IMG/VR virus record: IMGVR_UViG_3300024252_000008
DNA: 64,000 bases
Strand: one strand, 5' to 3'
Source: an uncultured virus (IMG/VR IMGVR_UViG_3300024252_000008)
Taxonomy: Duplodnaviria > Heunggongvirae > Uroviricota > Caudoviricetes > Schitoviridae
Shown here: piece after piece, positions 3,720 to 59,243 of the stretch
Position numbering within the stretch: the first letter of the stretch is position 1
Layout: each line of letters opens with the position of its first letter
Made by a program: the position numbers and the translations under genes
Notes under the pieces: model-generated
The model's input: only the letters and a program-made list of their open reading frames with translations
Database searches by the model: none
Told to the model about the DNA's origin: nothing

Positions 3720-3729
3720 GGAGTAAATT

Positions 3730-4074
3730 ATGGTTGCTAAAGCAATAATATATGAAGATCGTAGTAACCCTATTTTGATTACTTTAGTGAAAAATGGGGT
3801 TACATTAACTGAGTCTGAAATGAACCAATTCCTTAAATTTGAAATTAAGTATCAGAATACTTATTATGATTCTGATACCTATCCTCTTGCTTTTGTTGAG
3901 GATAACCCTAATGGTCAAGTAGAAATTAAACCTTATTCCCTTGGTCTAGCTGCTTCAAGAAAAAAAGGTGAATTAGTTGAATTCATTGTCTATGATGGGA
4001 ATGATCATGTTAATGGAATGTTATGGTCTCAGTTTATTCTTATCGTAAAAGATGATGCAGTTTTAGCAGCATAA
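3730..4074 (+). CDS. Hypothetical protein, probably structural
   Basis: AAGGAG RBS, 114 aa, beta-rich, in late operon. Confidence 0.5.
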   Translation: MVAKAIIYEDRSNPILITLVKNGVTLTESEMNQFLKFEIKYQNTYYDSDTYPLAFVEDNPNGQVEIKPYSLGLAASRKKGELVEFIVYDGNDHVNGMLWSQFILIVKDDAVLAA

Positions 4075-4086
4075 AAGGAAAACAAT

Positions 4087-4290
4087 ATGAAACGTGCACT
4101 TTTAATTTTTATCTTATTACTTGGTCTGGTACCCTCACTTGTTTGGGGGACGATTACTACTACAGTAAAAACAACACTTAACACTTCCAGGCATGTACCT
4201 ATTGTTGCTGCAGCTGATATTGATGTAAGAGCAATTGGTACTGCAACTGGTGCAGGTATCGCTTATAGTTTTGAAGGTTGGGTAGAATAA
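4087..4290 (+). CDS. Small protein with signal peptide
   Basis: MKR followed by a hydrophobic stretch; 67 aa. Confidence 0.45.
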   Translation: MKRALLIFILLLGLVPSLVWGTITTTVKTTLNTSRHVPIVAAADIDVRAIGTATGAGIAYSFEGWVE

Positions 4291-4313
4291 TTTAACGCGC
4301 ACCGGAGCTGATT

Positions 4314-23630: not shown

Positions 23631-25882
23631 TTATGGTTTGTAACCTCCATATTTAGGGGGTAATTGGCCGTATAAATAGACCTGATGTTTACTGCGACTG
23701 ATGGCAACATATAGCATTCTCGCAACGTCTGATGCAACCCTGCATTTACTTATATCTGCCAGGTCAATAAATACAGTATTGTAGGACCTACCTTGGGCTT
23801 TATGCACTGTACTGGCATATGCTGGTCGGAGGTCAAACCAAGTCTCTTTAACACTGAAATAATCAGTCCATTCTTTCTGTGCAGCTAATGATTTTAAAAG
23901 TAATTTAACATCATGAGGATCATTTGCCATGAAACCAATTAATTTGCCATTGATTTCAATATTGCGTCCGCGTACTCCTAATCTTTCTCGTTCACTGCTT
24001 GCATCAGTAATTTTAACAAAACTATCTGTTTTATAAAAATAACCTCTTTCATTAAGGGCATTATTAGTAATTGCATATTCTCCAGCTTGTAGTAATTTGG
24101 CGTACCCGTTGATTTGACGGATATGAGCATTGTAGGCCTGTACTCTGGCATTGGTCCAAGCCAGTACTTTAATTGAATTGGTTACATAATTTGGATCCAT
24201 GAAAGCGGCATCTACTAATCTTTGAAACTTGGATCCAGTAACATGGGCAACAGTGGGATCTTGTTTAATTGGTTTAAAGATGCCTGTTTCAGCTGTCTCT
24301 CGGAATTGTGCACCCGTCTGCATGATGGCACCACTATTTCTTAAAATCTTATTCATTTTAACTTTTCTGAAATTAAGAGTGGACATGGTTGCAATCTTTT
24401 GTCCTACTGGAGCAAGTTGCCATTCATCTCCAATTAAAACTATTTTAGAGTTTTTAGCTGTAGCATCAATTTCTTTTAATAAGTTATCATCAATCATGCT
24501 GGCTTCATCAATTATAAATAATTTATTATAAAGAGGGGCATAATCTTTTTTACGTTCAAGTTCAGTTTTACCAGTTTTAATATTATTAACAACTTTTAAA
24601 CCAAGAAGAGAATGGATAGTAGTTGCATCACAGTTCGTTAATTCTTCAAGTACTGAGACTGCCTGGTTGGTTGTTGCTGAAACCCTTACTTCAAATTTAC
24701 TTTGTTTTTTATTGGTCTGCAGCAGGAGTGCATACATTTTATATTGAGCTTCCAGTGCTCTCATCAGATATTTAATAAGGGTACTCTTACCCGAAACATT
24801 CAATGTAAGGCGTTAATTTACATCAGTTCGTCAATGAACTTCTACATATTTCTATGCAGTCTAGATCATATCATCATCTCTATAACAATCTGTACATACA
24901 CCACCACGTAATACGGCGGGTGAATCAGATCTTCTACTAAAAACATTATTACAATATTTACATTGATATGTGACTTTTCTACGAGTACCTGAATGTGTAC
25001 TATAAATACTGGTAGTGATTAATCTATTATTTAATAAAGATTTTAATTTTTTTATAGTTTTAATTTTTTTAATTGTAGCAGTAGCTTTACCGCCTAATTT
25101 TTTTACCAAGTCTTGTCGGCCTTGATTAAACGAATGTTTCATATTTTCTTTATGAGTACACCATTCGATATTTGTATTAGGGCCATATAAGTCATTGGGA
25201 TCTATAAAATTATTTTCACCATTATTATCAATATGATTAATAAAAGGTTTATTATCAGGATTGGGAATAAAAGCAATAGCCATTAACTGATGTACTTGAT
25301 AACGTTTTGGTTTGGCGTTTACACTTAATGTAATTCTTCTGTAAGAAGTACATTTTCGTTTGCTTATTTCTTGTTTTAATTCTCTTATTCCTTTTCTGCT
25401 ACCATTAGGTAAAGAAAAAATTTTACCTGTGTTAGTAACTTGATATCTACCTTCATAGCCTTTAATGTCTCGAATCTGTTCTTGCATGATATTTTCCTTT
25501 ATTTATACGTTTAAACCTTACATAAGGTTTACTCTTTAATTTTAGGAAAATCAATGAATTATTTGTTATATAGAGTTCCGCACTTCGAGATCACTTGATC
25601 TCTATGGATTTCATTCCCCGTTCTGGGCAGTATATCCTGATCGTTGAACCTTCAAAGGAATTCCTTCCTAAGCTTGGCTGCTGATTGTCTTCACCATTAC
25701 GTGCTAAGAGTTTCCAGCAATTCACGGAATTTATTTTGAGAGGATTGCTCCTCAAAGGATGCTATAAGTTAACATCCAGCAGCTCCTTGGATTATCATGT
25801 ATTTCTCTTTTGGTTGATTAAGAAAATCAAGAAAAGAGTTAAGAGCATTATCTTGGTCTTGGGTCAATGTTATATTGGGCAT
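23631..25882 (-). CDS. RecD/Dda-like SF1 DNA helicase, spliced: exon1 25882-25772, exon2 24791-23631 (423 aa)
   Basis: Exon1 MPNITLTQDQ...IQGAAGC plus exon2 GKSTLI rebuilds Walker A; IIDEASM, IGDEWQL, YASTVHKAQG, LYVAISR. Confidence 0.9.
24792..25771 (-). mobile_element. Group I intron inserted within helicase Walker A
   Basis: P1 GGAUGU/GCAUCC; GAAUUGCUGGAAA, AAUCAGCAG, UUCAACGAUCAG, GAUAUGAUCUAG; omega-G. Confidence 0.9.
24861..25487 (-). CDS. Intron-encoded NUMOD4-HNH homing endonuclease
   Basis: IKGYEGRYQVTNTG, VHQLMA, INHID...NN...NIEWCT..EN..H. Confidence 0.9.
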   Translation of the reverse strand: MQEQIRDIKGYEGRYQVTNTGKIFSLPNGSRKGIRELKQEISKRKCTSYRRITLSVNAKPKRYQVHQLMAIAFIPNPDNKPFINHIDNNGENNFIDPNDLYGPNTNIEWCTHKENMKHSFNQGRQDLVKKLGGKATATIKKIKTIKKLKSLLNNRLITTSIYSTHSGTRRKVTYQCKYCNNVFSRRSDSPAVLRGGVCTDCYRDDDMI

Positions 25883-26107
25883 TGGTTACTCCTTATTTTA
25901 TCAGACGGGTAGTGGAACGGCTCCCGTATACCGGTTAACTTCTCGACTCCACCTGTGAGTTAACAGACCATTCTGTTAATATGTTAACTAAACTGTTTAT
26001 TTAAAAAATTAGCAGGGCATGAGTAAAAACTAAAGATATGTTAATTTCATTCGTTTAAAAAATATACTCTCTCCCCGATGGAGTGCCCTGCTAAACTGCT
26101 GTATTTA

Positions 26108-26713
26108 CTATGCTGCATCCTCGCCTAATAGATTATGGCACTTAGCTATTGATTTTTTTAAAAACTTAATTTGTTCCTGGGCAGACTTGTAAGCTGTCAT
26201 GAGATCGTTGTATTGGGCAATCAGATTATCATGAGCAGCTTTTTCAGTGACATATAATTCTTTATATGCAGGTTTGGCCGGTGGTAATGGTTTGGCATAT
26301 TTTTTAATAATGGTGTCAATCTGCCCTCGTTTGATTGGAGTCTTAAGCTGTTTGGCTTTAATAGCAATCTCTTTAAAAACTATTTTTTCTTTTTTAAAAC
26401 CACAATCTCTAAAAACTTTGGCTACAAGACCGATTCCATATTTAGTGGCTTCATCAGGAAATCTTAAGGCTGCTCTTATACTATCATCAAATGTACCTTC
26501 TCTCATATTGTAAACGCTCTCAAGGTAAACCTTAAAGCTGCTCTTTTTATATAGAGGATTTTCTTTATACCTTTTGGATGTTTTTAGGAAATATAAGCCT
26601 AACATTGCTTCTAATTTAAGACCCATGGACTTTTCAAAGTTCAGTTTAATTGATTTCTCAATCTGTGCAATAGTCTTTTTTTCATATTTCTGTTTTAGAT
26701 TTTTCTTTTTCAT
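26108..26713 (-). CDS. Basic helical protein directly downstream of the TIGR array (putative Tas-associated)
   Basis: AAGGAG RBS about 15 nt after array end; 201 aa, Lys-rich, C-terminal coiled coil. Confidence 0.65.
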   Translation of the reverse strand: MKKKNLKQKYEKKTIAQIEKSIKLNFEKSMGLKLEAMLGLYFLKTSKRYKENPLYKKSSFKVYLESVYNMREGTFDDSIRAALRFPDEATKYGIGLVAKVFRDCGFKKEKIVFKEIAIKAKQLKTPIKRGQIDTIIKKYAKPLPPAKPAYKELYVTEKAAHDNLIAQYNDLMTAYKSAQEQIKFLKKSIAKCHNLLGEDAA

Positions 26714-26743
26714 TTTATGAATTCTCCTTTAAAATTAATGTTA

Positions 26744-27103
26744 CGCAAACTCTTTATGTATTTCATGCATATAGTAGCTCGCACCCGCATTTTAGACTTC
26801 AGAATATTTTTGGCTCGTAGTTTGTTCATAGACTTCAATTGCATGGTAACTCGTATTTAATCCTTAGATTTTATTTTTCCTTTAACTCGTATATTGGTAG
26901 TAGATTTCAAGTCAATCGTAACTCGCATGAACATAATAGGTTTCAATCATCCTGTAACTCGCACAGCACAGATAGATTTCAGCATATTTCTAACTCACAA
27001 TCTCAGTATAGGTTTCATAGCCGGAGTAGTTTGTATTTTAACAACAGGTTTCAAACCAATTATGACTCGCATAATTTGCCTAGATTTCAATGTGTTAGTA
27101 GCT
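26744..27103 (-). ncRNA. TIGR-type array: 10 x 36-nt dual-spacer guide units
   Basis: Exact 36-nt period; minus-strand unit AGYYA-N9-TGAAAYCTA-N9-TRCG; loop repeats at 26757+36n (n=0-9); 20 different 9-nt spacers; starts 9 nt after the Nop-domain gene. Confidence 0.9.
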
Positions 27104-27111
27104 TTAATATT

Positions 27112-27981
27112 TTATGCTGCTATTTCTTTAGCAACCTTGGGATCAAAGTAAAATGGTGCTACATATCCTGTATGTCCCATGATTGTCATGGCATATGGCA
27201 GTGTTACATCTTTACCACTAAGAGTCCTGGCTACTGTCCAGAAGTGAGCCAGAAACAATTTAACAGTATTATTTTTTGATGCATTATAAATATGGCCTGT
27301 TGTCCAGCGAGTCTTTTCTGGTACCTTATGGTATTTGGCTCTCTCTTCCAACCATACTTTTTTATACAAATGATCTGGTTGTTGTTTGTTGAAGCATTCA
27401 CCGATGAGGAAGCCTAACTTCCTACCTGCTGCTGACCAGTTCATTTGCTCACCCTTTTTCTTTTTTCTCATGGCACCATCTCTAATATCACGACCCATGT
27501 AAGCCCACCATTTAGAGATATTTGCAAAATCTTTTTCTTCAGTTCGGTAATTTAAAAGGCCATCACCTTTAAGAGATTTCTCACATTTACTGCACCAGTA
27601 AGTATCGTTTATCTTTTCAATGTCGGTCTTACATTTAGAGCAGACAGGTATGAACCTATAGTAGTACAGCATAATTAGTTCAGCCGCAGTAACAGGACCA
27701 ATACCTGGGATATCTTTTAACCATAAATTCCATATATCCCAATGAATTAGTTCATTACCTACCATTCGGGCAATACGCCCTTTGATAGTTATAAGACCAA
27801 CTTCTTTATTTTTCCCATTGTCTTCTCCATGTAGAATATTATCAAATTTTACTGGATGGTCACCAGGAAGACTTTGGAGCCTGTTCTTAGTGGATGCAAT
27901 CACTTTTGTAACTGCCTGATAGGTTCTAATTAAATAATTCATGTATGCTATATTGGCTGTGTTTACGTTTAATTCTGACAT
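27112..27981 (-). CDS. Nop-domain/IS110-related RNA-binding protein (TasA-like, no nuclease domain), with CxxC-x12-CxxC insertion
   Basis: N-terminal coiled coil (RTYQAVTKVIASTKNRL), IPGIGPVTAA HhH, F.NISKWWAYMG, KKG..NWS, H...A....VKLFL.H.W; adjacent array. Confidence 0.85.
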   Translation of the reverse strand: MSELNVNTANIAYMNYLIRTYQAVTKVIASTKNRLQSLPGDHPVKFDNILHGEDNGKNKEVGLITIKGRIARMVGNELIHWDIWNLWLKDIPGIGPVTAAELIMLYYYRFIPVCSKCKTDIEKINDTYWCSKCEKSLKGDGLLNYRTEEKDFANISKWWAYMGRDIRDGAMRKKKKGEQMNWSAAGRKLGFLIGECFNKQQPDHLYKKVWLEERAKYHKVPEKTRWTTGHIYNASKNNTVKLFLAHFWTVARTLSGKDVTLPYAMTIMGHTGYVAPFYFDPKVAKEIAA

Positions 27982-28003
27982 TCTATGTCTCCTTATTAGT
28001 TTA

Positions 28004-29158
28004 TTAAAATATATCGTAGTGCACTACTTCTCCAAAGTCACTCTTCCATCTGGGATCATCATGAATTAACCAGATAGTTGGGCAGGACGGATAATGTTTT
28101 TTGTTAGGCATATGAAACTCACCATCAGTAAATACTAACAATACATCAGGTTTATTCTTTTTAGCCCATTTAAGCATATCCAGTACATCAGTCCCACCAC
28201 CACCAGTAAACTTGAGATCGCGGAAGCAATCAGTACCCTCAGTAATTTCCTGGATACTTCGTATTTTAGTATCAAAGTCAATTAAGGTAATTAACTCTGG
28301 TTTCATTAATTCTTGAATAGTAGCAATTTCAACAATAAAGAAACTAAACTCATCTGGCATAACTGAACCACTACTATCAACTGCTACGGCAATATTACAA
28401 ATAGCCTCACTGAAAGCAGTAGGTAAATAATAATCTGGCATGAACCGTTTATTAGGTCTCCACCAGGAGAAATCATCTTTCAGAATACTTTGCATATGGT
28501 TCTGTAAAATAACATTCCAGGGTAATTTTGGATTAATAACACTTTGTAATTGAATATTTATTTCACCAGCTATGGTTCCTGGATCTTCATTTGCAGCTCG
28601 GGATTGTACTGCTGCTCTTAAGACTGTATCAGCAATAGCTTTCTCAGTAGCCTCAAGTGTTTTAGAGTCTTCTGGGTAAGATATGTCTTGTCCTCCAGGT
28701 ATACCAGAACCATTGGCTCCAAACATACCACCAGGATTCTGCTCCGCCTCTTCAAATAATTTATCATATACCAGTTCAGTATTCATGTTTTGATATTGCC
28801 TGTCACATAAACCACCTTTAGGTATTGTATAACCAGCACCTGTCAATTCAAGGTTAATAACCTGGTCACCGGCTCCATTCCATATTCCAGGGTCTCTAGG
28901 GCCCCTACGAGTCATATGACTGAAAGCAACATGATTTACTTCATGAGCCAGCAATCCTACTCTTTCTTTCTCATCTAAACTTAAAAACCATTTAGGGTTG
29001 ATATACAAGAAGGTACCATTGGTTTGAGCGGTCTCAATATCATCTTTCCATTCCTGGACTAATGAGAATAAAATAGTAGTAATAAATACAGTATTTGGCA
29101 TCATCATTAATTGGATCTTAGCTTTTTCTAAGGCTAGGTCTTCTGGTTTCTTACTCAT
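28004..29158 (-). CDS. N4 gp25-like metallopeptidase plus vWA domain protein
   Basis: TAQTNG, HEVNH, VAVDSSGS (MIDAS), GGGGTD, FTDG; probable start MSKKP. Confidence 0.85.
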   Translation of the reverse strand: MSKKPEDLALEKAKIQLMMMPNTVFITTILFSLVQEWKDDIETAQTNGTFLYINPKWFLSLDEKERVGLLAHEVNHVAFSHMTRRGPRDPGIWNGAGDQVINLELTGAGYTIPKGGLCDRQYQNMNTELVYDKLFEEAEQNPGGMFGANGSGIPGGQDISYPEDSKTLEATEKAIADTVLRAAVQSRAANEDPGTIAGEINIQLQSVINPKLPWNVILQNHMQSILKDDFSWWRPNKRFMPDYYLPTAFSEAICNIAVAVDSSGSVMPDEFSFFIVEIATIQELMKPELITLIDFDTKIRSIQEITEGTDCFRDLKFTGGGGTDVLDMLKWAKKNKPDVLLVFTDGEFHMPNKKHYPSCPTIWLIHDDPRWKSDFGEVVHYDIF

Positions 29159-29162
29159 TGGA

Positions 29163-31080
29163 TCACTCCTTAAACAATTGTTGACCTTTAACTGAGATCC
29201 ACCTCTTAACACAATCTTCTTTGATCATTTCTGGATCTCTACGCATAATATTCTGAAGGGTAATTGTTTGAAACTCAAGTGGTAAGCGTTCAATGTATGT
29301 CATTAAAGTAGAAATATTATTTGTTTTAGTGTAAGCAGCAATCATATGGGATACACCAAATCTAAAAGAGGGATCATTGTCCAAACGAGCTAATCCTGGT
29401 CTGGCCATTATTTCTTGGAAATCAGGCATATTGGTGTAGATTTTAGTAAACATTACAAATGATCGAGCAATGGCTTCACTAACAGTACCAGCAATCAAAG
29501 GTAAATATGTATGCAATTGTTTAGTTTCAATGCTACCAATAATCTTTGAAAGGAAATCCCAGGTACGAGGACAAGCAAATGTATGGTCATTATGCTCTGG
29601 GTTAAAATTATAAAGATCATCTGGCTTACTGTTGATATAAGCAATGATACGATGATCAATACCTTCTTTAGCTGCCCACTCCTGCCATAGTTCCGGATCT
29701 GTTACCAGTTCAAGATGAACCAGTCTGGACTGCATTGCAGTGCTTTGTCGGTTCACAATGGCCTTATCCGTAGCAAGGTTACCAGCAGCCACCATCTTGG
29801 TCATTGGATGTAAGTGATGCTGTCCTACCTTCTCATCCAGTATCAGCTTGTAACTCGCTGCCTGCACTGCTAATGAGGATGCATTGATCTCATCCAGGAA
29901 TAAAAGAAAACCTACTTTGCCTTCAGGTATTGGAGTATTTTCTAATGGAAATATATCCATGGGCACATAGGAAGCTTTCTTCCGATCTTCACTAATGAAA
30001 GGAAAGCCCAAACTTAATATTCGATAAAGTTCGTTAATCTTTACCCGTTCTCTTCTGAACTGCTGCATGTTACCATGCAGAATAGACCATATCAACATCC
30101 TACTATTATAAGCAGGACGACTACCGTTTCCACTCACTTGAGTGTACTCCCTTGCGGGATGGTCGTTACGCAATTTAACTAATAACATTTTTTGGACGGT
30201 CTAAATTATAAGTATCTATAATCCAGTTAACATGTAAAGCTGCCTCTATTTCGCTATTAAAACGTTTATTTTTAATAACTTTTCCTTTGTGTTTAACACC
30301 ACCAATCCATTTTTTTCTGGAGTTATCCCAAGATACATTTTTGTATTTGGATCTGGTGTTAAATTTAGTTCCAATCATTCGCTTTACACATTTTTCTCTA
30401 TCCTGTAGCCCAGTTGTAAAAGCATGTTTAACATTTTCTGAATTAGTAGCCCACTCAATATTTGTTTCAATATTATTTATTTTAATACCATCTTTATGAT
30501 TAACCATTGGTTTATTATAAGGATTTGGTTTAAATGCTTGTGCTACTAATCGATGAACTGCTTTTGTTGTTGGTTTATCTTTTCGCCATAATTGTACATA
30601 TAAATATTGACAAGTTTTTGATCTTATGAAACCTGTTATTATTTTAATACGATAATTATGATGATTATCTTGAATAGAGCGTATTCTTCCTAAATTAGAT
30701 ACCTCATATCTTTTTTCAAAATTTTTAATCGGTACCCAAATTTCTGTAATGTTATTAGTATTTAGCACGGTATTGACCTCGCTTTAAAATTAATAGTTAC
30801 CCCACTGTATGTTAAGGGTTTCCATTAGTCAAGGTGTTTCACCGTTTAGATAGTTTTCGACATAAGATTGCTCTTATGAAGCCCTTTGTAACTTAAGGTC
30901 TGTTGGATCACACTGACTTAATCTTACATCAATTAGTTCAAGATTATATTGATCAGCAATTTGTTGTACAATAGCGCTTTTACCAATACCTGGGGAACCA
31001 GATATCATGGTAACAAGATTTGCTTTCATGGCAGCAATTATAAATTTAACCGCCTCTTTACTGTTTATCTTCATACCCAT
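29163..31080 (-). CDS. N4 gp24-like MoxR/AAA ATPase, spliced: exon1 31080-30896, exon2 30012-29163 (344 aa)
   Basis: GSPGIGKS...DVRLSQCDPTD-L|LGFP...LFLDEIN...AAGN...CPRTW. Confidence 0.85.
30013..30895 (-). mobile_element. Group I intron in AAA ATPase
   Basis: AAACGGUGAAAC/AAUACCGUG pairing, GCGUAACGACCAU, GAUAUGGUCU; omega-G; in-frame exon join DLLGFP. Confidence 0.85.
30175..30768 (-). CDS. Intron-encoded NUMOD4-HNH-AP2 homing endonuclease
   Basis: W.PI..FE.RYEVSNLGRIRS, VHRLVA, VNHKDG.K.NN, SKYKNVSW. Confidence 0.9.
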   Translation of the reverse strand: MLNTNNITEIWVPIKNFEKRYEVSNLGRIRSIQDNHHNYRIKIITGFIRSKTCQYLYVQLWRKDKPTTKAVHRLVAQAFKPNPYNKPMVNHKDGIKINNIETNIEWATNSENVKHAFTTGLQDREKCVKRMIGTKFNTRSKYKNVSWDNSRKKWIGGVKHKGKVIKNKRFNSEIEAALHVNWIIDTYNLDRPKNVIS

Positions 31081-41665: not shown

Positions 41666-41971
41666 ATGATTGATAACCGTGAATTATTCCAGGATAAGAA
41701 GTGGGAAAGGAACTGCTTGTTTGCTGTGAAGCATAAGCGTTCTGGGGCCAGTGTTTACAAAGAAGACTCCAGCTGTGCATGCCATGCATACGTTGAGTCT
41801 TTAGGTATGCTGTTAGTTTATATTTTTGGTTCAGAAGAAGAATGTATTGAGGCTGTTAAAAAACATAATAACGAATTAAAGATGAAAGACCTATTGCTGG
41901 ATAAGGTAAATAAGCCCCAATATGCTAATTTTACTATAGATGCTTTTAAAATAGAGGGGAATTCTTTATGA
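41666..41971 (+). CDS. Hypothetical protein
   Basis: AAGGA RBS. Confidence 0.45.
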   Translation: MIDNRELFQDKKWERNCLFAVKHKRSGASVYKEDSSCACHAYVESLGMLLVYIFGSEEECIEAVKKHNNELKMKDLLLDKVNKPQYANFTIDAFKIEGNSL

Positions 41972-42198
41972 TAGCTGATGCTAAATATAAAAATACTTTG
42001 CCTTTTAGACGGTTGTTACAGCAATTTGGTTATTACAATTTTAAAGTTGATCAACGCTATAATTACCCAATGGATCGTATTGATTTTAAAGTTAAACTCC
42101 CAAAACGAAAGGATGGTTTTATTTTTAATACTTTAAAGGAATTAGAGATAGAATTAAAAGAGTTAAAAATAAAAAACTTGCTTTTAAGAAATGTTTGA
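41968..42198 (+). CDS. Hypothetical protein
   Basis: Coupled to previous gene. Confidence 0.45.
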   Translation: MIADAKYKNTLPFRRLLQQFGYYNFKVDQRYNYPMDRIDFKVKLPKRKDGFIFNTLKELEIELKELKIKNLLLRNV

Positions 42199-42237
42199 CT
42201 ATACTTACCCTATACACTAACCCAAGGAGGAGGAAAG

Positions 42238-42441
42238 ATGGAAGAATTTAAACAGTACAAAAGAAAAGGTTTATCTGAGATGCGTCCTTATGTAAAAGGA
42301 GAAGATTTAACAGATATTTCAGTAGCTGAAGTAGATGACCCTGAAAATGATATGGGTATGGTAGCCCGGAATCCACAGAATCATGCTGACCAGTGGTATG
42401 TGGCCCGTAAGTATTTTGAAGATAATTTAGAACCAGCTTAG
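42238..42441 (+). CDS. Small conserved phage protein
   Basis: EMRPY..GE...ARNP.NH.DQW.VA..YF..N. Confidence 0.6.
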   Translation: MEEFKQYKRKGLSEMRPYVKGEDLTDISVAEVDDPENDMGMVARNPQNHADQWYVARKYFEDNLEPA

Positions 42442-42449
42442 GAGGAAAG

Positions 42450-42974
42450 ATGGAAAAGTTTATTGGTACAAAAATTATTAAAGCAACACCTATGACTCGT
42501 GGAGATTACTGTGATTCACAGAGAATGGATGTTCCGGATGAACCATTAGCTGATGGCTATATGGTTGGTTACTCAAATGCTAAGGGTAAATTTGATGGAC
42601 CCTTGGAAAGCGGTTGTCATTATATCTCATGGAGCCCAATGGATGTGTTTGAGGCAGCTTATAAATCACTTGAAGATTCTATGACCTTTGGAACAGCTAT
42701 TGCAGCACTTAAAACTGGGCATAAGGTTGCCCGGGCAGGTTGGAATGGTAAAGATATGTGGTTGGTACTTATGACTGGAATGACTTTACCTCCTTTCTCA
42801 ACACAAGGGACAGATAGAAAGGTTAATGATCGAACCGCAAAATGGATTGGTGAAGACACACCCCTTGTAACGCTTCCGTATATTGCAATGTGGACTGCTG
42901 ATAAGAAATGGTTACCAGGCTGGTTAGCTTCACAGACTGATATGCTGGCTGATGATTGGATGATTATAAAATAG
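42450..42974 (+). CDS. DUF2829 / Tad2-like protein (candidate immune-signal sponge)
   Basis: N-domain GTK.IKA.PM...YISWSP.DVFE.AY; C-domain M.FG.A..ALK.G.KVARAGWNGK.M...W.ASQTDMLADDW. Confidence 0.7.
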   Translation: MEKFIGTKIIKATPMTRGDYCDSQRMDVPDEPLADGYMVGYSNAKGKFDGPLESGCHYISWSPMDVFEAAYKSLEDSMTFGTAIAALKTGHKVARAGWNGKDMWLVLMTGMTLPPFSTQGTDRKVNDRTAKWIGEDTPLVTLPYIAMWTADKKWLPGWLASQTDMLADDWMIIK

Positions 42975-42982
42975 GATAAACC

Positions 42983-43657
42983 ATGGACCCAATAACTGAA
43001 GAACAATTTAAAGCTGCACTACCGGTAACGGTTAAGAAATTAGTTAATCCTCAGATCATTGATGATATTAATGATATGCTGATGAATCCGGAGGCTTTGG
43101 AACATTTCCGAGAGAACCTGTTAAGCTATACCAATGTGATGACTGAAGGCCGGTTTAAGATGACCAGCTATATCAGTGCAGTGAAATATGTTAGTTTTAA
43201 GTTATTGGGTCATACAAATAAAGATGCTTACATCAAAACCTTTCCGGATAAGTATGTAGGCTTTCTGGCAGATGGTGTAGCTCAAAAGGATATTGCGAGT
43301 TACACCACTGCCTATAACAAGAGTAAATTAGTTAATCTTATTTTTGAACAGACACTAGTACCCTTTCATGTACTGAATGCCCCCGCGTACCAGGATGCTT
43401 TGAATACTCAAGTTGACCTGATGCATCATGCCAAGTCAGAGAAAGTAAGATCTGATGCAGCCAACAGTGTAATGGTTCATTTGAAACCCCCAGAATCCTC
43501 TAAACTGGAGTTAGATATTACAGTAAAACAGGATGACTCTATCAGGACTTTAAGAGAAACTACTCTCAAATTAGCTAAGCAACAGCAAGAGCTTATTCTT
43601 AATGGTTCACACTCAGTTAAGACCATTGCTGAGAGTACGTTGGTGAATGATGACTGA
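42983..43657 (+). CDS. Terminase small subunit (N4 gp69-like)
   Basis: FRENLLSY..V..EGRFK...Y..AVKYVS, SEKVRSDAA; precedes TerL. Confidence 0.8.
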   Translation: MDPITEEQFKAALPVTVKKLVNPQIIDDINDMLMNPEALEHFRENLLSYTNVMTEGRFKMTSYISAVKYVSFKLLGHTNKDAYIKTFPDKYVGFLADGVAQKDIASYTTAYNKSKLVNLIFEQTLVPFHVLNAPAYQDALNTQVDLMHHAKSEKVRSDAANSVMVHLKPPESSKLELDITVKQDDSIRTLRETTLKLAKQQQELILNGSHSVKTIAESTLVNDD

Positions 43658-45242
43658 TAAATTAAAAGATAACCCATCTTTAGAAAAATTACTTAATGAA
43701 GTTAATTATTCTTTTTTCAATGAGCATTATGTCCCGTCAGAAGAAGCACTGGCTTATATTACTTTTATTAAGTTAGTTAATGGTACTGAAGGTGAAGAAA
43801 ATAAGTCACCTGTCTTCCATATGGATATGCTCGATAATATAAATGCTAATAATAATAATCTATTTGTGTCTTTCCGTGGCAGTGCCAAAACGACTGCTCT
43901 ACATGAGTACATGTTTTTATATATTGCAGTATATGGTGAATTCTTTGATTTTGGTGAGGTGTCAGTGGCAATGTATATCAGTGACACCATTGATAACGGT
44001 ATTAAGAGTATGCGTAAGAATTTAGAGTTCAGGTATAATAATTCTGAATTCTTAAAAACTTATATTCCTACTGCAAACTTTACTGATGTCCGATGGGAGT
44101 TTATTAATGCTGCCGGCCATAGATTTTGTGTCAGAGGGTTCGGGGCCAGTACCGGTGTGAGAGGATTTAAAGAATATGGGACCAGGCCATCCTGGGCAGG
44201 CTTTGACGATTTAATGAGTGATAAGAATGCTGAATCAGCTACTATTACCCGGGATATAAAGAATATTATATATAAAGCTGCTCGACAGGCTATGCATCCT
44301 GCTAAGCGTATGGTTATATGGACCGGTACCCCTTTTAATCAAAGAGACCCATTATATGAAGCTGCAGGCAGTAGTGGTTGGAATACCAGAGTATATCCGA
44401 TCTGTGAAGAGTTTCCCTGTGCCAGAGAGGACTTTAAAGGCGCTTGGGAGGACAGGTTTACCTTTGACTTTGTACAGCAGGAGTATGATACTCTCTCAGA
44501 GAATGGTGAGATCAGTGCGTTTAACCAGGAGTTAATGTTGAGAATTATGTCTCAGGAAGACAGGTTAATCCAGGATTCAGATATTTGTTGGTATAAACAT
44601 GAAATGATCTTAAATAATTTAGGGGCCTTTAATTATTATATTACTACTGATTTTGCCACCAGTAAGAAGAGTTCTAGTGATTTTTCTGTTATATCGGTGT
44701 GGGCCCTGAATAATAAAGGCTTTTGGTTTTGGATCGATGGCATTTGTAAAAAGCAGTTAATGAACCATAACATTGATGACTTATTTAGGTTGGCTCAGAA
44801 GTGGCAACCCCAGACAGTAGGTGTTGAGGTGAGTGGCCAGCAAGGTGGATTTATACCCTGGATCCAAAGTGAAATGATGGATCGTAATATTTATTTTATG
44901 CTCGCAACTGACAATAATAGTAACCAGCCGGGCATAAGACCTAACTCCCATAAAATGGTTAGATTTAATATTGTTGTTCCTTGGTTCAAGGCTAAAAAAA
45001 TGTATCTTCCTTTAGAATTAAAAGACACCCCTCCAATGCAAGAGTGCATAAATGAGTTGCAATTAGTTTCTCCGAGCGGTATGAAGAGTAAACACGATGA
45101 CTTTATAGATACTATTTCTATGTTGAGTAGTTTGACAGTATGGAGACCAAGTGATAATGTGATCATGCATAAAGACCAAAATAATGTTTATGAAAGTGAG
45201 AAGGAAGACAATGTATCAACAATTGATTCTTATGTAGTGTAA
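43647..45242 (+). CDS. terL: Terminase large subunit (N4 gp68-like)
   Basis: FRGSAKTT Walker A, FDDL, GTPF, TTDFA, KHDDFIDTISML. Confidence 0.92.
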   Translation: MMTDKLKDNPSLEKLLNEVNYSFFNEHYVPSEEALAYITFIKLVNGTEGEENKSPVFHMDMLDNINANNNNLFVSFRGSAKTTALHEYMFLYIAVYGEFFDFGEVSVAMYISDTIDNGIKSMRKNLEFRYNNSEFLKTYIPTANFTDVRWEFINAAGHRFCVRGFGASTGVRGFKEYGTRPSWAGFDDLMSDKNAESATITRDIKNIIYKAARQAMHPAKRMVIWTGTPFNQRDPLYEAAGSSGWNTRVYPICEEFPCAREDFKGAWEDRFTFDFVQQEYDTLSENGEISAFNQELMLRIMSQEDRLIQDSDICWYKHEMILNNLGAFNYYITTDFATSKKSSSDFSVISVWALNNKGFWFWIDGICKKQLMNHNIDDLFRLAQKWQPQTVGVEVSGQQGGFIPWIQSEMMDRNIYFMLATDNNSNQPGIRPNSHKMVRFNIVVPWFKAKKMYLPLELKDTPPMQECINELQLVSPSGMKSKHDDFIDTISMLSSLTVWRPSDNVIMHKDQNNVYESEKEDNVSTIDSYVV

Positions 45243-45269
45243 ACTAAATATTTAACGTAGAGGGTACTC

Positions 45270-45995
45270 ATGATTACCTTACAAGAGTTTTTTGACACTT
45301 TAGCCTCTGGAGAATTTTCTAATTTGGCTCTAGGCAATTCAGTGTTATCCACTATTACCGAAGAAAAATATCCCAAGATAGTTAGTAATGTAAATTTAGG
45401 TCTTATTGAGATTTATAAGCGCTTTACTCTTAAAGAAAAGAGAATTGATCTTTATGAACAGACTGGTATTACTCATTATTTAATTCGTTCAGATTACCTT
45501 AGCAGCACTGTAGCTGCTGTGTCCTCTAATGGTTATTTAATTGAAGATAGCGATGATCCCTTTGAAGATGATATAATTAAGATTACTGAAGTTATTGATG
45601 CTGATGATGATCCAATCCATCTTAATGATAAACGTTTTCCGGATCTGGGGGTGTTCACTCAAGCATTTGATACTATAAGACTTACGCCTCAAGATCCTTT
45701 AAGAGTTCTGACTTTAATCTATTTGGCCAGTTATCCCAAAATTGTAGTAGAAGATGACTTTAATCCAGAAGAAGTAGAATTATTCTTTCCTAGTTGGATA
45801 CTAGAGCCCCTATTGCTTTATGTTGCTGCCCGGGTGTTCCAGGGAAAGGCTTCTAAGGCTGCTGAAGGTGAGCGAAGTCTTTATACTACTTTTATGTACC
45901 AATATGAAAATTCATGTAAAAAAATAGAGTTACTTGGTTTGGCTGATAAGACTGAGGAATCTTCCGAAAAATTTGAAAGTAATGGGTGGACTTAA
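45270..45995 (+). CDS. N4 gp67-like virion adaptor protein
   Basis: L..GE.SNL, N.GL...YKRF, LLLYVAAR, KFE.NGW; synteny. Confidence 0.75.
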   Translation: MITLQEFFDTLASGEFSNLALGNSVLSTITEEKYPKIVSNVNLGLIEIYKRFTLKEKRIDLYEQTGITHYLIRSDYLSSTVAAVSSNGYLIEDSDDPFEDDIIKITEVIDADDDPIHLNDKRFPDLGVFTQAFDTIRLTPQDPLRVLTLIYLASYPKIVVEDDFNPEEVELFFPSWILEPLLLYVAARVFQGKASKAAEGERSLYTTFMYQYENSCKKIELLGLADKTEESSEKFESNGWT

Positions 45996-46387
45996 TTATG
46001 GTACCTGGTAATTACGATATTACAATTTACAGAGGTGGTACATTTTCAGTAGGTATTAATGCTGAGAATGCTGCAGGAGTAGCAATTGATTTCAGTACTT
46101 ACGATTCGGTACGTATGCAGATCAGACCTGCTTGGATTAAAAAACATGGTAATAGCCCAATGGTACCACTATTAGAGTTGACAACTGATAATGGTGGTAT
46201 TGAAGTAGTAACCACTACTCTTACTATGTTTATTTCTGCAGCTGACACGGCTGCATTAACTTTTAATGAAGGCCGTTATGACCTGGAACTAGTTACTGAT
46301 GCTGTTGTCGGACCTCCGGTAGTTGCTGAAGTGGTTGACAAGATTCTTGTTGGCTTAGTAAAGGTTACTGGCGAAATAACACTATGA
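45986..46387 (+). CDS. Tail-fibre attachment/adaptor-like protein
   Basis: I.RG.TF...RMQIR...YDLEL...G.V.V. Confidence 0.55.
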   Translation: MDLIMVPGNYDITIYRGGTFSVGINAENAAGVAIDFSTYDSVRMQIRPAWIKKHGNSPMVPLLELTTDNGGIEVVTTTLTMFISAADTAALTFNEGRYDLELVTDAVVGPPVVAEVVDKILVGLVKVTGEITL

Positions 46388-48552
46388 GCGATATGGCTGT
46401 TGTAAATGTAGTCCCTACAGTGATAACCGTTACAGTAACTGATAATCAACCTACTGTAACTATTACTGATAGTTCTATTGCTGCAATAACTGTTACAGAT
46501 AATTCTACCTCTCAAGTCACAGTTATAGGCAATGTAATCCCTCAAATTACTGTTACCGGCGCAACACCGGTTACTGTTCTTGGTGATGAGAAGCCAGTGG
46601 TTGTGATTAATACGGGTGTTGGTAATAAGTATGATACAGCAACAGTTATAGCAATGTTGGCCGGTCAATTAACCTCTACACAGATGGCAGCTAGTCTTGC
46701 TTCTGATTTAACTAAATTGGCAGATTTATGGGTTAGTGTTGGTGCAGATGTTCTGTTAACTTTAGGTGCCGGTAATTCTTTAATTGCGACTTCAGTTATT
46801 GCAACAGATGCGAAGATAGCCCTTTCAGCGGTAGATATTAAAGCAGATACTGCTGGTAAATTAAATGCAAGAGCTGCTAGCATTGAGCTAACTGCTATTC
46901 AGATTAGTCAGAGTGTTACTGACCTGGAAACATCTGTTAACGGCTCTCTTTCAGCCCATACTACATTAATAAACCAAACAGCGGATGATATTGATTTAGT
47001 TGCTACAGATGTATTGGCTATTAATGGCCCTGGTGGAGATATTGAAACACTTACTTCTTCTATTGGTATTAATGCTGCTGGATTGATATTAGAGTCTGAA
47101 GCGCGAATATTAGTAAATGGAAAAGCAGATGTAAATACAGCTACTCTTACTATTCAAGGAGATCTTATTGATCTACAAGTAATTGCAACTGATAGTGTTA
47201 CAGGTCGAGTAAATATTGCAGAAACTACAATTTCAGCTAATCAAATTCTTTCCCAAGTCAACAGCACGAAACTTGGTGCAACAAAATATTCTTTAGAGGC
47301 CACCCAAACTTTATTGGCTAATCAATTTGCAGTAAACATTGTTGAAGATGGTAATGGTAAATCTTATGCAACCGGTTTTCAGTTATTACTTAATCCTATT
47401 TGGCTCAGTGGCGAAGACTACCCATTAGACGTTAAAGTTGTTTATGGTAATGTAGTTTATCTTTGTATTTTAGCTCATACGTCTGCTGCAGGCAATGCTC
47501 CTGGTGTAGACCCGGCTTATTGGACAGCTCAACCAGATGATACTAAATCAGAATTTATTGTTAACGCTGACACTTTTAAAGTGTTAACCAGTACTTCGGC
47601 TGATCCTGTATTTTCAGTAGCTGGTGATGTTATTAGTTTAAATTCTACTTATGTAAATATCCCCACAACTTTAATTGTTGGTTCAATTGGTGCAGATCCT
47701 GCATCTGTTAAGTCAGCTTTAAGTTTAGCTGCTATGGCTTATTTATCTTCTGTTGGTTTTAGCAACCTAGATGGCACTATTATTTCAGGAACTAAAATTC
47801 AAACAAGTTTAATAAATACTGGAGCAATAACTGTTGGGGAATTAAATGGCGGTGCTGCAGTTCTTGCTGATGCTGCAAATGGGGTACTTGGCTACAATTC
47901 AACGGTACTCTGGAAATATCCAGGACAAACCTTTATTGATGGCGGAAAGATTTATACTAATTCTATTACTGCAAACCAAATAAATGTATCTAATTTAGCC
48001 GCTCTTTCTGTTAATACTGGTTTACTGAATGTTGGAACCACTGGAAGCCTTAGAGGGGGTAAAACTTCGCATGCTGATCCAACTGCTGGTTTTTGGATGG
48101 GCTATGATGGTGGGACCTATAAATTAGCTTTTGGTAATTCCTCCAAAAGTATTCTTTGGAATGGCTCTACTTTAACTGTTACCGGTGATATTATTGCTAC
48201 TGGTAATATCCAAGATCTAGCTGTTAATACTGGTAAACTTGACGCTAATGCCGCAACAGAGATTACTGGAGATAGTGGACTTTCTACTGATTACACTTTA
48301 ACTCATAATTTTTCTACACATTCTACTGCAAACATATCCGTACAGTTTTCTATGGTAGGGTATACTACTTGTACTGTTAATTTTTATGCAGGTACAACAC
48401 TCATATGGTCTGCTGGTGGTGAGGGAGGAATGTACTCTGGTGGCAGAACTTGGTCAACAGTAGCAGCCGGTTCATATTCTTTTAAAGTACAGGGTACTTT
48501 AGGTGGCGCAACAGGCTATCCTTGTATTATAGTAATGATTTCATATAAGTAG
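46384..48552 (+). CDS. Tail fibre / host-recognition protein with carbohydrate-binding module
   Basis: Coiled-coil repeats; W...Y....V.Y....Y.C..AHTS....P....W (CBM5/12-like); FIVNADTF; FIDGGKIYTNSITA. Confidence 0.7.
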   Translation: MSDMAVVNVVPTVITVTVTDNQPTVTITDSSIAAITVTDNSTSQVTVIGNVIPQITVTGATPVTVLGDEKPVVVINTGVGNKYDTATVIAMLAGQLTSTQMAASLASDLTKLADLWVSVGADVLLTLGAGNSLIATSVIATDAKIALSAVDIKADTAGKLNARAASIELTAIQISQSVTDLETSVNGSLSAHTTLINQTADDIDLVATDVLAINGPGGDIETLTSSIGINAAGLILESEARILVNGKADVNTATLTIQGDLIDLQVIATDSVTGRVNIAETTISANQILSQVNSTKLGATKYSLEATQTLLANQFAVNIVEDGNGKSYATGFQLLLNPIWLSGEDYPLDVKVVYGNVVYLCILAHTSAAGNAPGVDPAYWTAQPDDTKSEFIVNADTFKVLTSTSADPVFSVAGDVISLNSTYVNIPTTLIVGSIGADPASVKSALSLAAMAYLSSVGFSNLDGTIISGTKIQTSLINTGAITVGELNGGAAVLADAANGVLGYNSTVLWKYPGQTFIDGGKIYTNSITANQINVSNLAALSVNTGLLNVGTTGSLRGGKTSHADPTAGFWMGYDGGTYKLAFGNSSKSILWNGSTLTVTGDIIATGNIQDLAVNTGKLDANAATEITGDSGLSTDYTLTHNFSTHSTANISVQFSMVGYTTCTVNFYAGTTLIWSAGGEGGMYSGGRTWSTVAAGSYSFKVQGTLGGATGYPCIIVMISYK

Positions 48553-48557
48553 GAATT

Positions 48558-49028
48558 ATGCAAAATAATGAATATACAGTTTTTAATAAAGTAACAGGTA
48601 AAGTTGTAAAATACTTAGGTTGTTCGCTTCATCAAGCTAAACTTAATTTTGATCCAGTCACAGAAATTTTATGTGATCAAAGGTATGAAGAAACTTGTAT
48701 AATTAATCCTGAAACTTTAGTTGTTACAGAGCCCACAATACCTTATCCAGAATTTCCTGTTACTAATTTGTTCAGTTTAAAACAATATGTAGATTCAGAA
48801 GATAATTTTAATAAAGCAATTATTAATTTAGGTGAAGAACCTGTTGCTTTTAAAAAGAAATACTATACAACTTTCCGTAAGTGGTTATACCCGGATTCAA
48901 ATGATTATTTAGATATACAGTTTAAATTGCGTAGTGATGACCCAAAAGAAAGAAAAAAAAGTAAAGAGCAACTTAAAGCATATGATGCTGTTTGTCGTTC
49001 AGCTAAAAATAGATTTCCAAAAGAATAG
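48558..49028 (+). CDS. Putative tail fibre assembly chaperone
   Basis: Follows the fibre; R...YP...K.RFPK C-terminus. Confidence 0.45.
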   Translation: MQNNEYTVFNKVTGKVVKYLGCSLHQAKLNFDPVTEILCDQRYEETCIINPETLVVTEPTIPYPEFPVTNLFSLKQYVDSEDNFNKAIINLGEEPVAFKKKYYTTFRKWLYPDSNDYLDIQFKLRSDDPKERKKSKEQLKAYDAVCRSAKNRFPKE

Positions 49029-49055
49029 TAAACATATTTAAATAGGATATATCAC

Positions 49056-51227
49056 ATGGAAGATACAGCTAAAACAAAACTTACTGATTGGGCTAATGAG
49101 CCATCTATCGCTGATTTGAAACAAAATTTAGATGATGCCCGGTCGGACTATGATAAGCATATCAATAATGTTGATACCTGGTTAGAGAATTTAAATATTA
49201 CTGGAGCTGCTAAGATTACCACTGCAAAAGGTAGATCTTCTGTTGTGCCCAAGGTTATCCGGAAGCAGGCTGAATGGCGGTACTCTTCTTTATCTGAACC
49301 ATTCTTAAGTACTTCAGATATTTTTAATGTAAATCCAATTACTGCTGGTGACCGAGACCGGGCTAAACAAAATGCTCTGGTACTGAATAATCAGTTTAAT
49401 ACTAAGATAGATAAAGTAAATTTTATTGATGCCTATATCCGGGATGCTGTTGATCTAGGTACTGTCATTGTTAAAGTAGGCTGGGATTCAGAAGAAGAGG
49501 AAGTTGAGGAAGAGATTCCTGAATACGAATTTATTCCTATTACTGATCCGGAAGTACTGCAGCAAACTATTCCTAAATACATTCAGCTATTGCAACTTAA
49601 GAAAGATAACCGGGATGTGTACGAAGAATACAGCAATCCCGGGATGGATCAAACATTACAAATATTTGCTACAACTGGCCAGGCGGTTACACCCAATCAA
49701 ATTGGTGTTCGTATTGAGAAAGTAATGAAGGAAACAAAGAATCAACCAGTTCTTGAAGTGATGGAGCATAAAAATCTTGTTATGGATCCGTCCTGTGGTG
49801 GTGATATTCGTAAGGCAGGTTTTATTGGTGAGACTTTTAAAGCTTCAGTAGCCGGTTTAAAGAAAGACGGTAAGTATCATAATTTAAAGCATATAAATAA
49901 AGAAGCCTCTTCTCCTTTAACTGATCCGGATTATGAAGAGACACCTGATAATGATTCTTTTAATTTTACTGATGAACCCCGTAAGCAGTTTACCGTGCAA
50001 CAGTACTGGGGTGACTGGGATATCCATGGTGATGGTACAGTAGTACCCATTGTTGCTGCTTGGGTTAATGATCGTAAGATCCGTATGGAAGAGAACCCTT
50101 TCCCGGATAAAGAACATCCCTTTGTTAAAGCAGTGTATTTGCCAGTACGTAAATCCCTTTATGGTCAACCTGATGGTGAATTACTGATTGAGAATCAACA
50201 GATTATTGGTGCTACCACTCGTGGTATGATTGATCTTTTGGGTCGATCAGCTAATAGTCAGACTGGCATGCAACAAGGTTTCCTTGATTTTACTAATAAA
50301 CGTAAATTTGATAGGGGTGAGGATTATGTATTTAATCAGGTAATGGATCCCCGTCAAGCAGTATATATGCACTCCTTTCCGGAAATACCTGCTTCAGCCC
50401 CCAATATGATTGCTATGCAGAATGCTGATGCTGAGAGTCTTACCGGTGTGAAGGCCTTCCATTCGGGTATAAATAGCCGCGCATTAGGCGATAGTGTCGG
50501 AGGTGGTAGGGATGCCTTAGATGCAGCTAGTAAACGTGAATTTGGTATACTTAGGCGCCTTGCATTAGGTATAATCCAGATTGGTCGTAAGATGATCAGT
50601 ATGAATGCTGAATTCTTATCTGAAGAAGAAATTATTAGAGTAACCAATGAAAGATTCATTCCGATCCGTAGAGATGATCTTGCTGGTCATTTTGATCTTG
50701 AGTTAAGCATAAGTACTGCTGAAGCTGATAATAAGAAAGCAGAGGAATTAGCTTTCATGCTTCAGACTACCGGTAATAATATGGACCCTGATTTAAGGAA
50801 TATGATTCTTGCTGATATTGCTACTTTAAGAAAGATGCCTGGTATGGCTAAAAAGATTGAAGAGTATGAGCCCAAACCTGATCCAATTGAAGAAGCAAAG
50901 AGAGAATTAGAAATATATCTACTTAAAGCTCAGATTGCTAAAGAAGAAGCATTGGCAACCAAGCATGCTGCTGAAGCGGAACTGAACGGTGAGAAGGGCT
51001 ACCGTGAGATTACTCAGGGTAGACTTAATGAGGCAAAAGCAGGTACTGAGGGCGCTAAAACAAGAGATATCTCCAGTGATGCTGATAATAAAGATTTAAG
51101 TTACTTAGAACAAGAATCCGGAGTAAATCAAGCCCGAGAGTTGGAAAAGTTAGATGTAAAAGCACAAAATGATTTGACTACTAAAATAATATCCGATACC
51201 GTTAAACCAGAAAAAGCTACTGCCTGA
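49056..51227 (+). CDS. Portal protein (N4 gp59-like)
   Basis: LTDW.NEP...LK, PK.IRKQAEWRY..LSEPFL, EENPFPD, AESLTGVKAF. Confidence 0.92.
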   Translation: MEDTAKTKLTDWANEPSIADLKQNLDDARSDYDKHINNVDTWLENLNITGAAKITTAKGRSSVVPKVIRKQAEWRYSSLSEPFLSTSDIFNVNPITAGDRDRAKQNALVLNNQFNTKIDKVNFIDAYIRDAVDLGTVIVKVGWDSEEEEVEEEIPEYEFIPITDPEVLQQTIPKYIQLLQLKKDNRDVYEEYSNPGMDQTLQIFATTGQAVTPNQIGVRIEKVMKETKNQPVLEVMEHKNLVMDPSCGGDIRKAGFIGETFKASVAGLKKDGKYHNLKHINKEASSPLTDPDYEETPDNDSFNFTDEPRKQFTVQQYWGDWDIHGDGTVVPIVAAWVNDRKIRMEENPFPDKEHPFVKAVYLPVRKSLYGQPDGELLIENQQIIGATTRGMIDLLGRSANSQTGMQQGFLDFTNKRKFDRGEDYVFNQVMDPRQAVYMHSFPEIPASAPNMIAMQNADAESLTGVKAFHSGINSRALGDSVGGGRDALDAASKREFGILRRLALGIIQIGRKMISMNAEFLSEEEIIRVTNERFIPIRRDDLAGHFDLELSISTAEADNKKAEELAFMLQTTGNNMDPDLRNMILADIATLRKMPGMAKKIEEYEPKPDPIEEAKRELEIYLLKAQIAKEEALATKHAAEAELNGEKGYREITQGRLNEAKAGTEGAKTRDISSDADNKDLSYLEQESGVNQARELEKLDVKAQNDLTTKIISDTVKPEKATA

Positions 51228-51306
51228 CCAGTATATTTATACTCAGGTATAACCTATAATAGCTCACTGCAGCATATCGCAGGAGGACACAAAGAGGAAT
51301 AAAACT

Positions 51307-51639: not shown

Positions 51640-51642
51640 CCC

Positions 51643-58685: not shown

Positions 58686-58720
58686 TAATAAATAAATAAA
58701 TTTTAATAAGGGGACTGACT

Positions 58721-59230: not shown

Positions 59231-59243
59231 GTAGGGGGACAAA

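Follow-up and report, generated by a model that had tools for sequence, protein, structure and literature searches.

A TIGR-TasA locus, probably a non-cutting RNA-guided DNA binder, with a linked companion gene in a marine N4-like phage

What is encoded by a gene and an adjoining array of short alternating repeats on the minus strand of an uncultured phage genome, and what might the pair do for the phage? The array lies in a stretch of 64,000 nucleotides (nt), hereafter the window, from IMG/VR virus record IMGVR_UViG_3300024252_000008 (Schitoviridae), next to an open reading frame (ORF) of 289 amino acids (aa). An original prediction, made without database searches, took the two for an RNA-guided system of the TIGR-Tas type (TIGR, tandem interspaced guide RNA). 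Here we conclude, with a probability of roughly 0.85, that the phage carries a TIGR-TasA system at this locus, a nuclease-free module for RNA-guided DNA binding. By analogy with characterized members of the family, it probably binds DNA without cutting it. Every defining feature of TIGR-Tas systems that can be tested from sequence was found, except the terminator typical of their arrays, and the predicted identity is upheld by the Tas/Nop fold, the dual-repeat anatomy, compensatory pairs at the unit ends, a processing dyad and the presence of arrays at all 45 related loci.

The array occupies positions 26744–27103 on the minus strand and consists of ten units in exact 36-nt register, from unit 1 (27068–27103) to unit 10 (26744–26779). 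Read from the sequence, each unit follows AGYYA-[9]-TGAARYCTA-[9]-TRYG, that is, a 5′ half-edge (AGYYA), a 9-nt spacer A, a loop repeat (TGAARYCTA), a 9-nt spacer B and a 3′ half-edge (TRYG). When the window was scanned for AGYYA-N9-TGAARYCTA-N9-TRYG with at most two mismatches, 11 matches were returned, ten of them the array itself; the mean in dinucleotide shuffles (n = 100) was 0.17, the maximum 1, and none of the 100 reached 11. The extent, strand, unit number and period first proposed for the array are thereby confirmed, and all ten proposed spacer pairs were reproduced letter for letter. Half edge-repeats had been described at both ends, and both edges are indeed partial, reading TTAA|AGCTA at the start and TGCG|TAACA at the end. 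The array adjoins the 289-aa gene as stated, at a distance of 8 nt from its stop rather than 9 nt; the last four letters of this gap (27104–27111, minus strand), TTAA, hold the position of the 5′ half-edge and represent a 5′-truncated edge. At the far end, a 3′-truncated edge remnant (TAACA...; 26714–26743, minus strand) leads, without a terminator, directly into the ribosome-binding site (AAGGAG) of a 201-aa gene that we call the companion. No second array was found by the pattern scan in the 131,274-bp phage record (eight array matches at 0–1 mismatch and one stray match at 2). Tandem Repeats Finder reports period 36 with just 2.2 copies because the spacers differ, half of each unit being unique. 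This anatomy matches that given for TIGR arrays in passages of PMC12045711: alternating repeats of 8–12 nt, 9-nt spacers and truncated edges.

Both repeats carry box D (UG) and box C (CUA) motifs at their ends, the loop reading UGAARYCUA and the edge URYGAGYUA. UG is present in nine of ten loops, C21, U22 and A23 are at least 90% conserved across the units, and the loop is A-rich. Passages of PMC12045711 describe TIGR repeats that start with UG and end with CCA, with a G–C pair between the boxes; they also mention a loop rich in A and, with covariation to support it, one further edge pair that joins the ends of the same processed guide (tigRNA). In the window array, every one of the 20 cells of terminal pairs 2–35 (G2–C35) and 3–34 (Y3–R34) is a standard pair, and double changes occur in each of the two (GC in nine units and AU in one for 2–35; CG in four, UA in four and UG in two for 3–34). 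Their covariation score was reached by 5 of 500 shuffles, and slid pairings paired 23–70% of cells, in what is a small test on ten sequences. If the same letters are read as pairs inside one unprocessed edge repeat, 3 of 18 cells are broken. Selection therefore fits the 36-nt unit as drawn. TaTIGR-TasR of a Thermoproteota archaeon (9MTY; Faure et al. 2025, PMC12045711) has the same plan and nearly the same repeats: its synthetic tigRNA1 is AGCCA-UGCAAGCCC-UGAAACCCA-UUGCCUUAG-UGCG (Table S3 of that paper).

The 289-aa ORF, tasA (27112–27981, minus strand, stop codon 27112–27114, ribosome-binding site AAGGAG), is, on the evidence of sequence and model comparisons, a Tas protein of the TasA subtype, with no sign of the nuclease that marks TasR and TasH. 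The comparison with Nop, IS110 and Tas proteins that had been suggested as a check points to Tas. With phmmer, the PDB sequences gave TaTasR (9MTY chain A, E = 4.1e-21; according to a passage of PMC12045711, a TasR–tigRNA–DNA structure) and then TasH (E = 5.9e-4). An AlphaFold2 model built on 37 relatives (mean predicted local distance difference test score (pLDDT) of 88.8) retrieved in Foldseek a top ten made up entirely of TasR and TasH structures (E = 2.6e-9 to 1.9e-5), followed by the bridge-RNA recombinases IS621 and ISCro4. The alignment of the model with TasR begins at TasR residue 110, and that with TasH at residue 62, past their RuvC and HNH domains, and its N-terminal 58 residues are helical; the protein is therefore a nuclease-free TasA. 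Pfam contains no HNH or RuvC nuclease family that matches it. TasR has an N-terminal RuvC domain (residues 1 to ~109) and cuts DNA, whereas the window protein starts where the coiled coil of TasR starts. The original prediction of a programmable DNA-binding module thus named the right class; the use suggested for it, in competition between phages or in silencing of host genes, stands as a hypothesis.

From its N terminus, TasA is laid out as long helices (~8–78, a coiled-coil region), a helix-hairpin-helix (~82–107), a four-cysteine zinc ribbon (~108–149; C114, C117, C130 and C133), the Nop C-terminal domain (~150–254) and a C-terminal loop with Y263 and H270. These last two residues, each at least 90% conserved among the 37 relatives, align without gaps in phmmer with Y289 and H296 of SpTasH, a register checked at H268, R278, R286, E292 and K293, which are named in passages of PMC13421893. 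The same passages give Y289 and H296 as the catalytic residues for pre-tigRNA maturation, and excerpts of the TIGR literature state that a Tyr/His dyad is conserved across systems of the dual-repeat type. The zinc ribbon is a distinctive feature: residues 106–149 (~44 residues) hold the four invariant cysteines and short strands in place of just 4 residues (193–196) in TasR, and the insertion is common to more than 100 metagenomic relatives. Among the entries consulted in Table S1 of PMC12045711, the TasA proteins of rows 5652 and 5671 have a CxxC...CxxC insertion after the SxLWxY motif; here it lies before that motif. Judging from these sequences, zinc ribbons may have been inserted into Tas proteins more than once.

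The relatives carry the same arrangement. A protein database search returned 162 TasA relatives at E ≤ 0.001, every one unnamed or ‘hypothetical’, and tblastn found no TasA homologue in GenBank phage records (E = 1e-5). Among viral contigs, 45 loci encode TasA relatives, and a periodic region adjoins the tasA gene in every one; the strongest periodicity at lags of 28–49 is 36 in 42 loci and 37 in the other 3. A motif scan recognized 525 units in 43 of the 45 loci, with 413 distinct spacer pairs. The consensus repeats of the relatives are TGCGAGC[CGT]A and TGAAACC[CT]A. Spacer pairs are common only to near-identical contigs and are unrelated between lineages. Contigs L001 and L006 encode a TasA 100% identical to that of the window, with an array that differs by one spacer letter over the eight units compared. 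Many loci have two or three arrays, located upstream of tasA, between the genes or past the companion, and the junction TGCG TAAC ... GGAG ... ATG recurs in L002, L003 and L004.

From the published family, the following mode of action can be proposed. The tasA gene, the array and the companion would be co-transcribed as part of a run of minus-strand genes, which extends from 30188 to 23631 with short gaps (8 and 30 nt around the array) and with ribosome-binding sites. No terminator-like site breaks this strand between 25400 and 30400, and one RNA-library contig of 4,241 nt spans 25772–30012 without a difference. Promoter-like sites are no commoner there than in shuffles. A TasA dimer would bind the box C/D motifs and cut each edge repeat between UGCG and AGCUA by means of Y263 and H270, releasing ten 36-nt tigRNAs. 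Each tigRNA would guide the dimer to an 18-bp site of the form 5′-[spacer A][reverse complement of spacer B]-3′, at which spacer A would pair with one strand and spacer B with the other. As the nuclease is absent, binding and bending of the DNA would block transcription or replication at the site. In line with the two ends of this scheme, passages of PMC12045711 report that FpTasA binds 36-nt tigRNAs, and parts of bioRxiv 10.64898/2026.09.09.750476 report RNA-guided repression of transcription by MbTasA.

A number of observations weigh against the TIGR-TasA reading. The Pfam matches of the protein (helix-hairpin-helix, Transposase_20 at E = 0.083 and zinc ribbon) are all below threshold. The repeats of the window are more degenerate than those of its relatives (edge TACAAACTA, loops TAAAATCTA and TGAAATACA), so some units may be poor guides; units 2, 7 and 10 have degenerate repeats. 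Box C is CUA here and not CCA as in TasR, the relatives having mostly CCA, CGA or CTA, and in some relatives the edge and the loop end in different triplets. No terminator-like site follows the array on the minus strand (25400–30400), where the last unit meets the ribosome-binding site of the companion, whereas passages of PMC12045711 state that a rho-independent terminator typically follows TIGR arrays. Seven of the ten seawater RNA libraries listed hold at least half of the sampled words of the region, and in the four runs compared the contigs are identical to the window there; these, like the contig that spans 25772–30012, are assembled contigs, possibly derived from DNA, and as such cannot show transcription, strand, RNA ends or a 36-nt species.

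The guides are a further point on that side. In Table S3 of PMC12045711, one strand of the optimized TaTasR target consists of spacer A and then spacer B in reverse complement; from this we took both the target geometry and the minus strand as the one that corresponds to the RNA. In the phage’s own genome, the ten 18-mers built in this way had no match at up to two mismatches and four at three; three control geometries gave one, three and one matches at three mismatches, one of these controls (A + B) gave three at two, and counts at 3–5 mismatches equal those of the wrong geometries. Self-regulation through perfect sites is therefore unlikely, and the targets would be expected outside the phage itself, in the host or in competing mobile elements. 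Four of the ten 18-mers, scanned against viral contigs without a control scan, had 0, 1, 0 and 1 exact matches, in different contigs and unrelated ORFs, and pointed to no clear target. In the reverse direction, 406 spacer pairs of other phages gave two matches to this genome at up to one mismatch, one of them inside the virion RNA polymerase gene; re-paired spacers gave a mean of 0.26, with 8 of 300 shuffles reaching 2, a signal too weak to use. All spacer pairs searched against all 45 loci yielded two matches, which is background level (11 of 200 shuffles). By estimate, an 18-mer is expected by chance in hundreds of gigabases. Genuine TIGR targets are described as hard to identify in passages of PMC12045711.

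The companion (26108–26713, minus strand) is the feature that the original prediction did not include. It sits between the array and the helicase gene and comprises an all-helical N-terminal domain (~28–145) and a coiled-coil-like C-terminal helix (150–200). By tblastn, homologues are present in 37 of the 45 tasA loci, nearly always just past the first array, and arrays often flank the gene on both sides. A reverse search from the companion reached 22 loci, with tasA upstream in all 20 that could be tested; the other two end at most 185 nt from the gene. The companion is linked to tasA as tightly as the array is; the DUF2201/VWA gene upstream was found in only two near-identical contigs among the 45 loci. 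The neighbours of the cassette vary: it lies between the genes for the terminase large subunit and the portal in L009, L014 and L038, beside DNA methylases in L029, L034 and L037, and beside a DnaB-like helicase in L004. As the flanking genes differ this widely, tasA, array and companion evidently travel together as a cassette.

Neither Pfam nor PHROG has a family for the companion, a profile search against the PDB gave coiled-coil matches only, and its relatives in the protein database are all ‘hypothetical’. The model of the companion (pLDDT 92.9) consists of helices throughout, and the one at its C terminus, 50 residues long, draws the coiled-coil matches; in Foldseek nothing was retrieved at E ≤ 0.001, and this same helix took up the matches of a wide VIA search. 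There is no more than a faint likeness to the DNA-binding domains of the ParB family. Profiles of ParB_N, KorB, SopB_HTH and DUF3102 found nothing in the phage genome at E up to 10. DUF3102 and Plasmid_parti_N had come up as Atlas leads for the companion, and the former was not borne out by its profile. With a helical, DNA-binding-like domain and a coiled coil, the companion probably acts with TasA. A tentative extension, which we think possible but would not bet on, is that it is the obligate third component of a distinct zinc-ribbon TIGR-TasA subfamily (tasA, array, companion and often a second array) that passes as a unit from one tailed phage to another, unrelated one. On that view the companion would be a DNA-binding protein with a coiled coil, as opposed to a ParB CTPase, and would link the recognition of RNA-guided sites to the bridging, spreading or occlusion of DNA; the subfamily may be missing from the 2025 catalogue.

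Could the same TIGR-TasA machine have another job, in which it marks or bridges DNA sites together with the companion, for example so that the phage or a partner element can segregate, control its replication or recombine, instead of shutting down genes of the host or of rivals? The linkage of the companion leaves room for such a role, but no guide matches the phage’s own genome, the four profiles named above found nothing there and repression is the sole TasA activity tested so far; we rate a marking or bridging role as rather unlikely. Decay is a poorer explanation still. A relic, with its protein or several of its units defunct and its array drifting without selection, might have off-consensus repeats such as those of units 2, 7 and 10, less regular than in L003, L007 and L038, and no target was found in the searches made. 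Against this, the ORF is intact and retains all invariant residues of the 37 relatives, including the four cysteines and the Y/H pair, and the unit-end changes are compensatory in a way that drift would not produce. In two other public contigs the protein is identical and the array is the same but for one spacer difference, and four RNA-library assemblies hold the region without any difference. A decaying locus is hard to square with these observations and seems improbable.

Translation of the array as a 12-residue repeat protein had been named at the outset as an outcome that would count against a guide array. A stop-free plus-strand frame does cover 282 of the 360 nt, and among 48 arrays (47 of relatives and that of the window) 39 have a frame that is at least 95% open, compared with 30.6 expected and with none of 300 mononucleotide shuffles reaching 39. 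The excess, however, is not confined to one frame but occurs in three, on both strands (−0, 24 versus 14.5; −2, 24 versus 13.6; +1, 17 versus 10.3) and is explained by the depletion of TA in spacers (observed/expected 0.65), TGA not being depleted (1.14). In 826 spacers from 43 related loci, TAG and CTA are the most depleted trinucleotides, as in natural genome sequence, at 0.42 and 0.49 of the mononucleotide expectation and 0.74 and 0.88 of the dinucleotide expectation. The arrays thus look like open frames because TA is depleted in spacers and not because one frame is protected. The window array is fully open in no frame, and between lineages it is the RNA motifs and pairs that are conserved, not codons, with unrelated spacers. 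Translation is not supported, and we give it almost no credence. No more plausible is an IS110-type RNA-guided recombinase, the repeats being its ends or its bridge RNA. IS110/IS621 recombinases and box C/D small nucleolar ribonucleoproteins (Nop5) do resemble the window locus in that they, too, have an RNA-binding domain of the Nop type and guides of two parts with box C/D-like motifs on their flanks. TasA, however, matches only residues ~121–320 of IS621 and ISCro4 and has no DEDD Pfam domain, and its partner is a ten-unit, 36-nt guide array, not a single bridge RNA or dispersed small nucleolar RNAs; there is no methyltransferase partner either.

The TIGR-TasA reading accordingly has to be placed among systems already described. 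TIGR-Tas systems have been known as a kind since 2025, when the family was described with phage loci numbering in the thousands, and parts of bioRxiv 10.64898/2026.09.09.750476 count 20,096 tas loci and 6,685 annotated arrays, many in phages. As described in passages of PMC13421893, SpTIGR-TasH of Salicola phage CGphi29 (PDB 9W03, 9W04 and 21KL) has an N-terminal HNH domain and 8-nt spacers, 16 nt in all, whereas the window protein has no nuclease and its spacers are 9 nt. By the descriptions in the relevant passages, FpTasA (dual-repeat array), MbTasA and PlTasA are of the same class as the window locus, in which a Nop protein stands alone beside a TIGR array; the guides used for MbTasA and PlTasA were of the stem-loop kind in the parts available of bioRxiv 10.64898/2026.09.09.750476 and 10.64898/2026.08.11.744272, whereas the window array is of the dual-repeat kind. 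The tasA–tasParB operons described in passages of PMC12045711 have the layout seen here and in the relatives, with a second gene operonic with tasA and dual-repeat arrays upstream, downstream or between. TasParB is said there to have predicted C-terminal dimerization and HHpred matches to ParB domains, including CTPases, and the repeats of these operons to be 10 nt long; compared by description, the window has 9-nt repeats and a companion made up of helices only, for which the ParB_N profile gives no match. In the literature searched, the term ‘TasParB’ occurs in PMC12045711 only.

The locus otherwise confirms, and does not change, the published picture, and the linked companion gene and the zinc-ribbon insertion may be the only parts that go beyond what is in print. 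Neither is mentioned in the searched parts of the TasA papers (PMC12045711, 10.64898/2026.09.09.750476 and 10.64898/2026.08.11.744272). The 9,182 rows covered of Table S1 of PMC12045711 contain neither the window protein nor the motifs KLFLAHFWTVAR and SKWWAY, nor relatives under three shared metagenome numbers. Our literature search returned no paper on both tigRNA and N4-like phages and, by title, no primary TIGR study among four of the five on tigRNA and zinc.

The phage record, 131,274 bp with 115-bp terminal repeats, is not a concatemer (411 repeated 25-mers only). N4-like genomes are about 60–80 kb, so this one is large. The N4-like setting originally proposed is supported by a 3603-aa virion RNA polymerase (phrog_2206, E = 0; record 59375–70186, minus strand) and by the upstream DUF2201/VWA gene, whose counterparts in Vibrio phages VBP47 and VBP32 and in Pseudoalteromonas phage pYD6-A, all N4-like, have ~41% identity to it. 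A second giant ORF (3275 aa) lies at record 41960–51787 on the minus strand, and the record ORFs 2979–4298 and 58498–59352 have a 113-residue stretch in common at 95.6% identity. The second-strongest periodic signal in the window is near 40330, with a 51% self-match at lag 47.

The module had been placed between a gp25-like gene and the helicase; this placement needs amending, as the companion intervenes and the helicase gene (23631–25890) is itself split by a 980-nt group I intron (24792–25771, minus strand; RF00028, 43.3 bits, E = 2.2e-9, short of the gathering score of 50). No Rfam family was found over 26000–28200, where tasA and the array lie. The intron contains an ORF (24861–25487) for an HNH/NUMOD4 endonuclease and interrupts the Dda-like helicase inside Walker A; joining 25772 to 24791 restores ...IIQGAAGCG|KSTLIKYL.... 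This joined form is present exactly in contigs of three of the four RNA libraries, which may represent spliced RNA or a variant that lacks the intron. Another gene for an HNH endonuclease (30175–30768, phrog_59) adjoins positions 30012/30013 and 30128, where, in each of the four RNA libraries, the contigs are interrupted and have loose ends to either side; 30012–30768 may be another mobile insertion or a population variant.

With this locus, the complete genome of a marine N4-like phage supplies a naturally occurring, well-resolved case of a TIGR system that lacks a nuclease. Its ten guides define 18-bp sites that can be searched for, given the identity of the host, and the companion gene and the zinc-ribbon insertion are possible handles on the TasA class.

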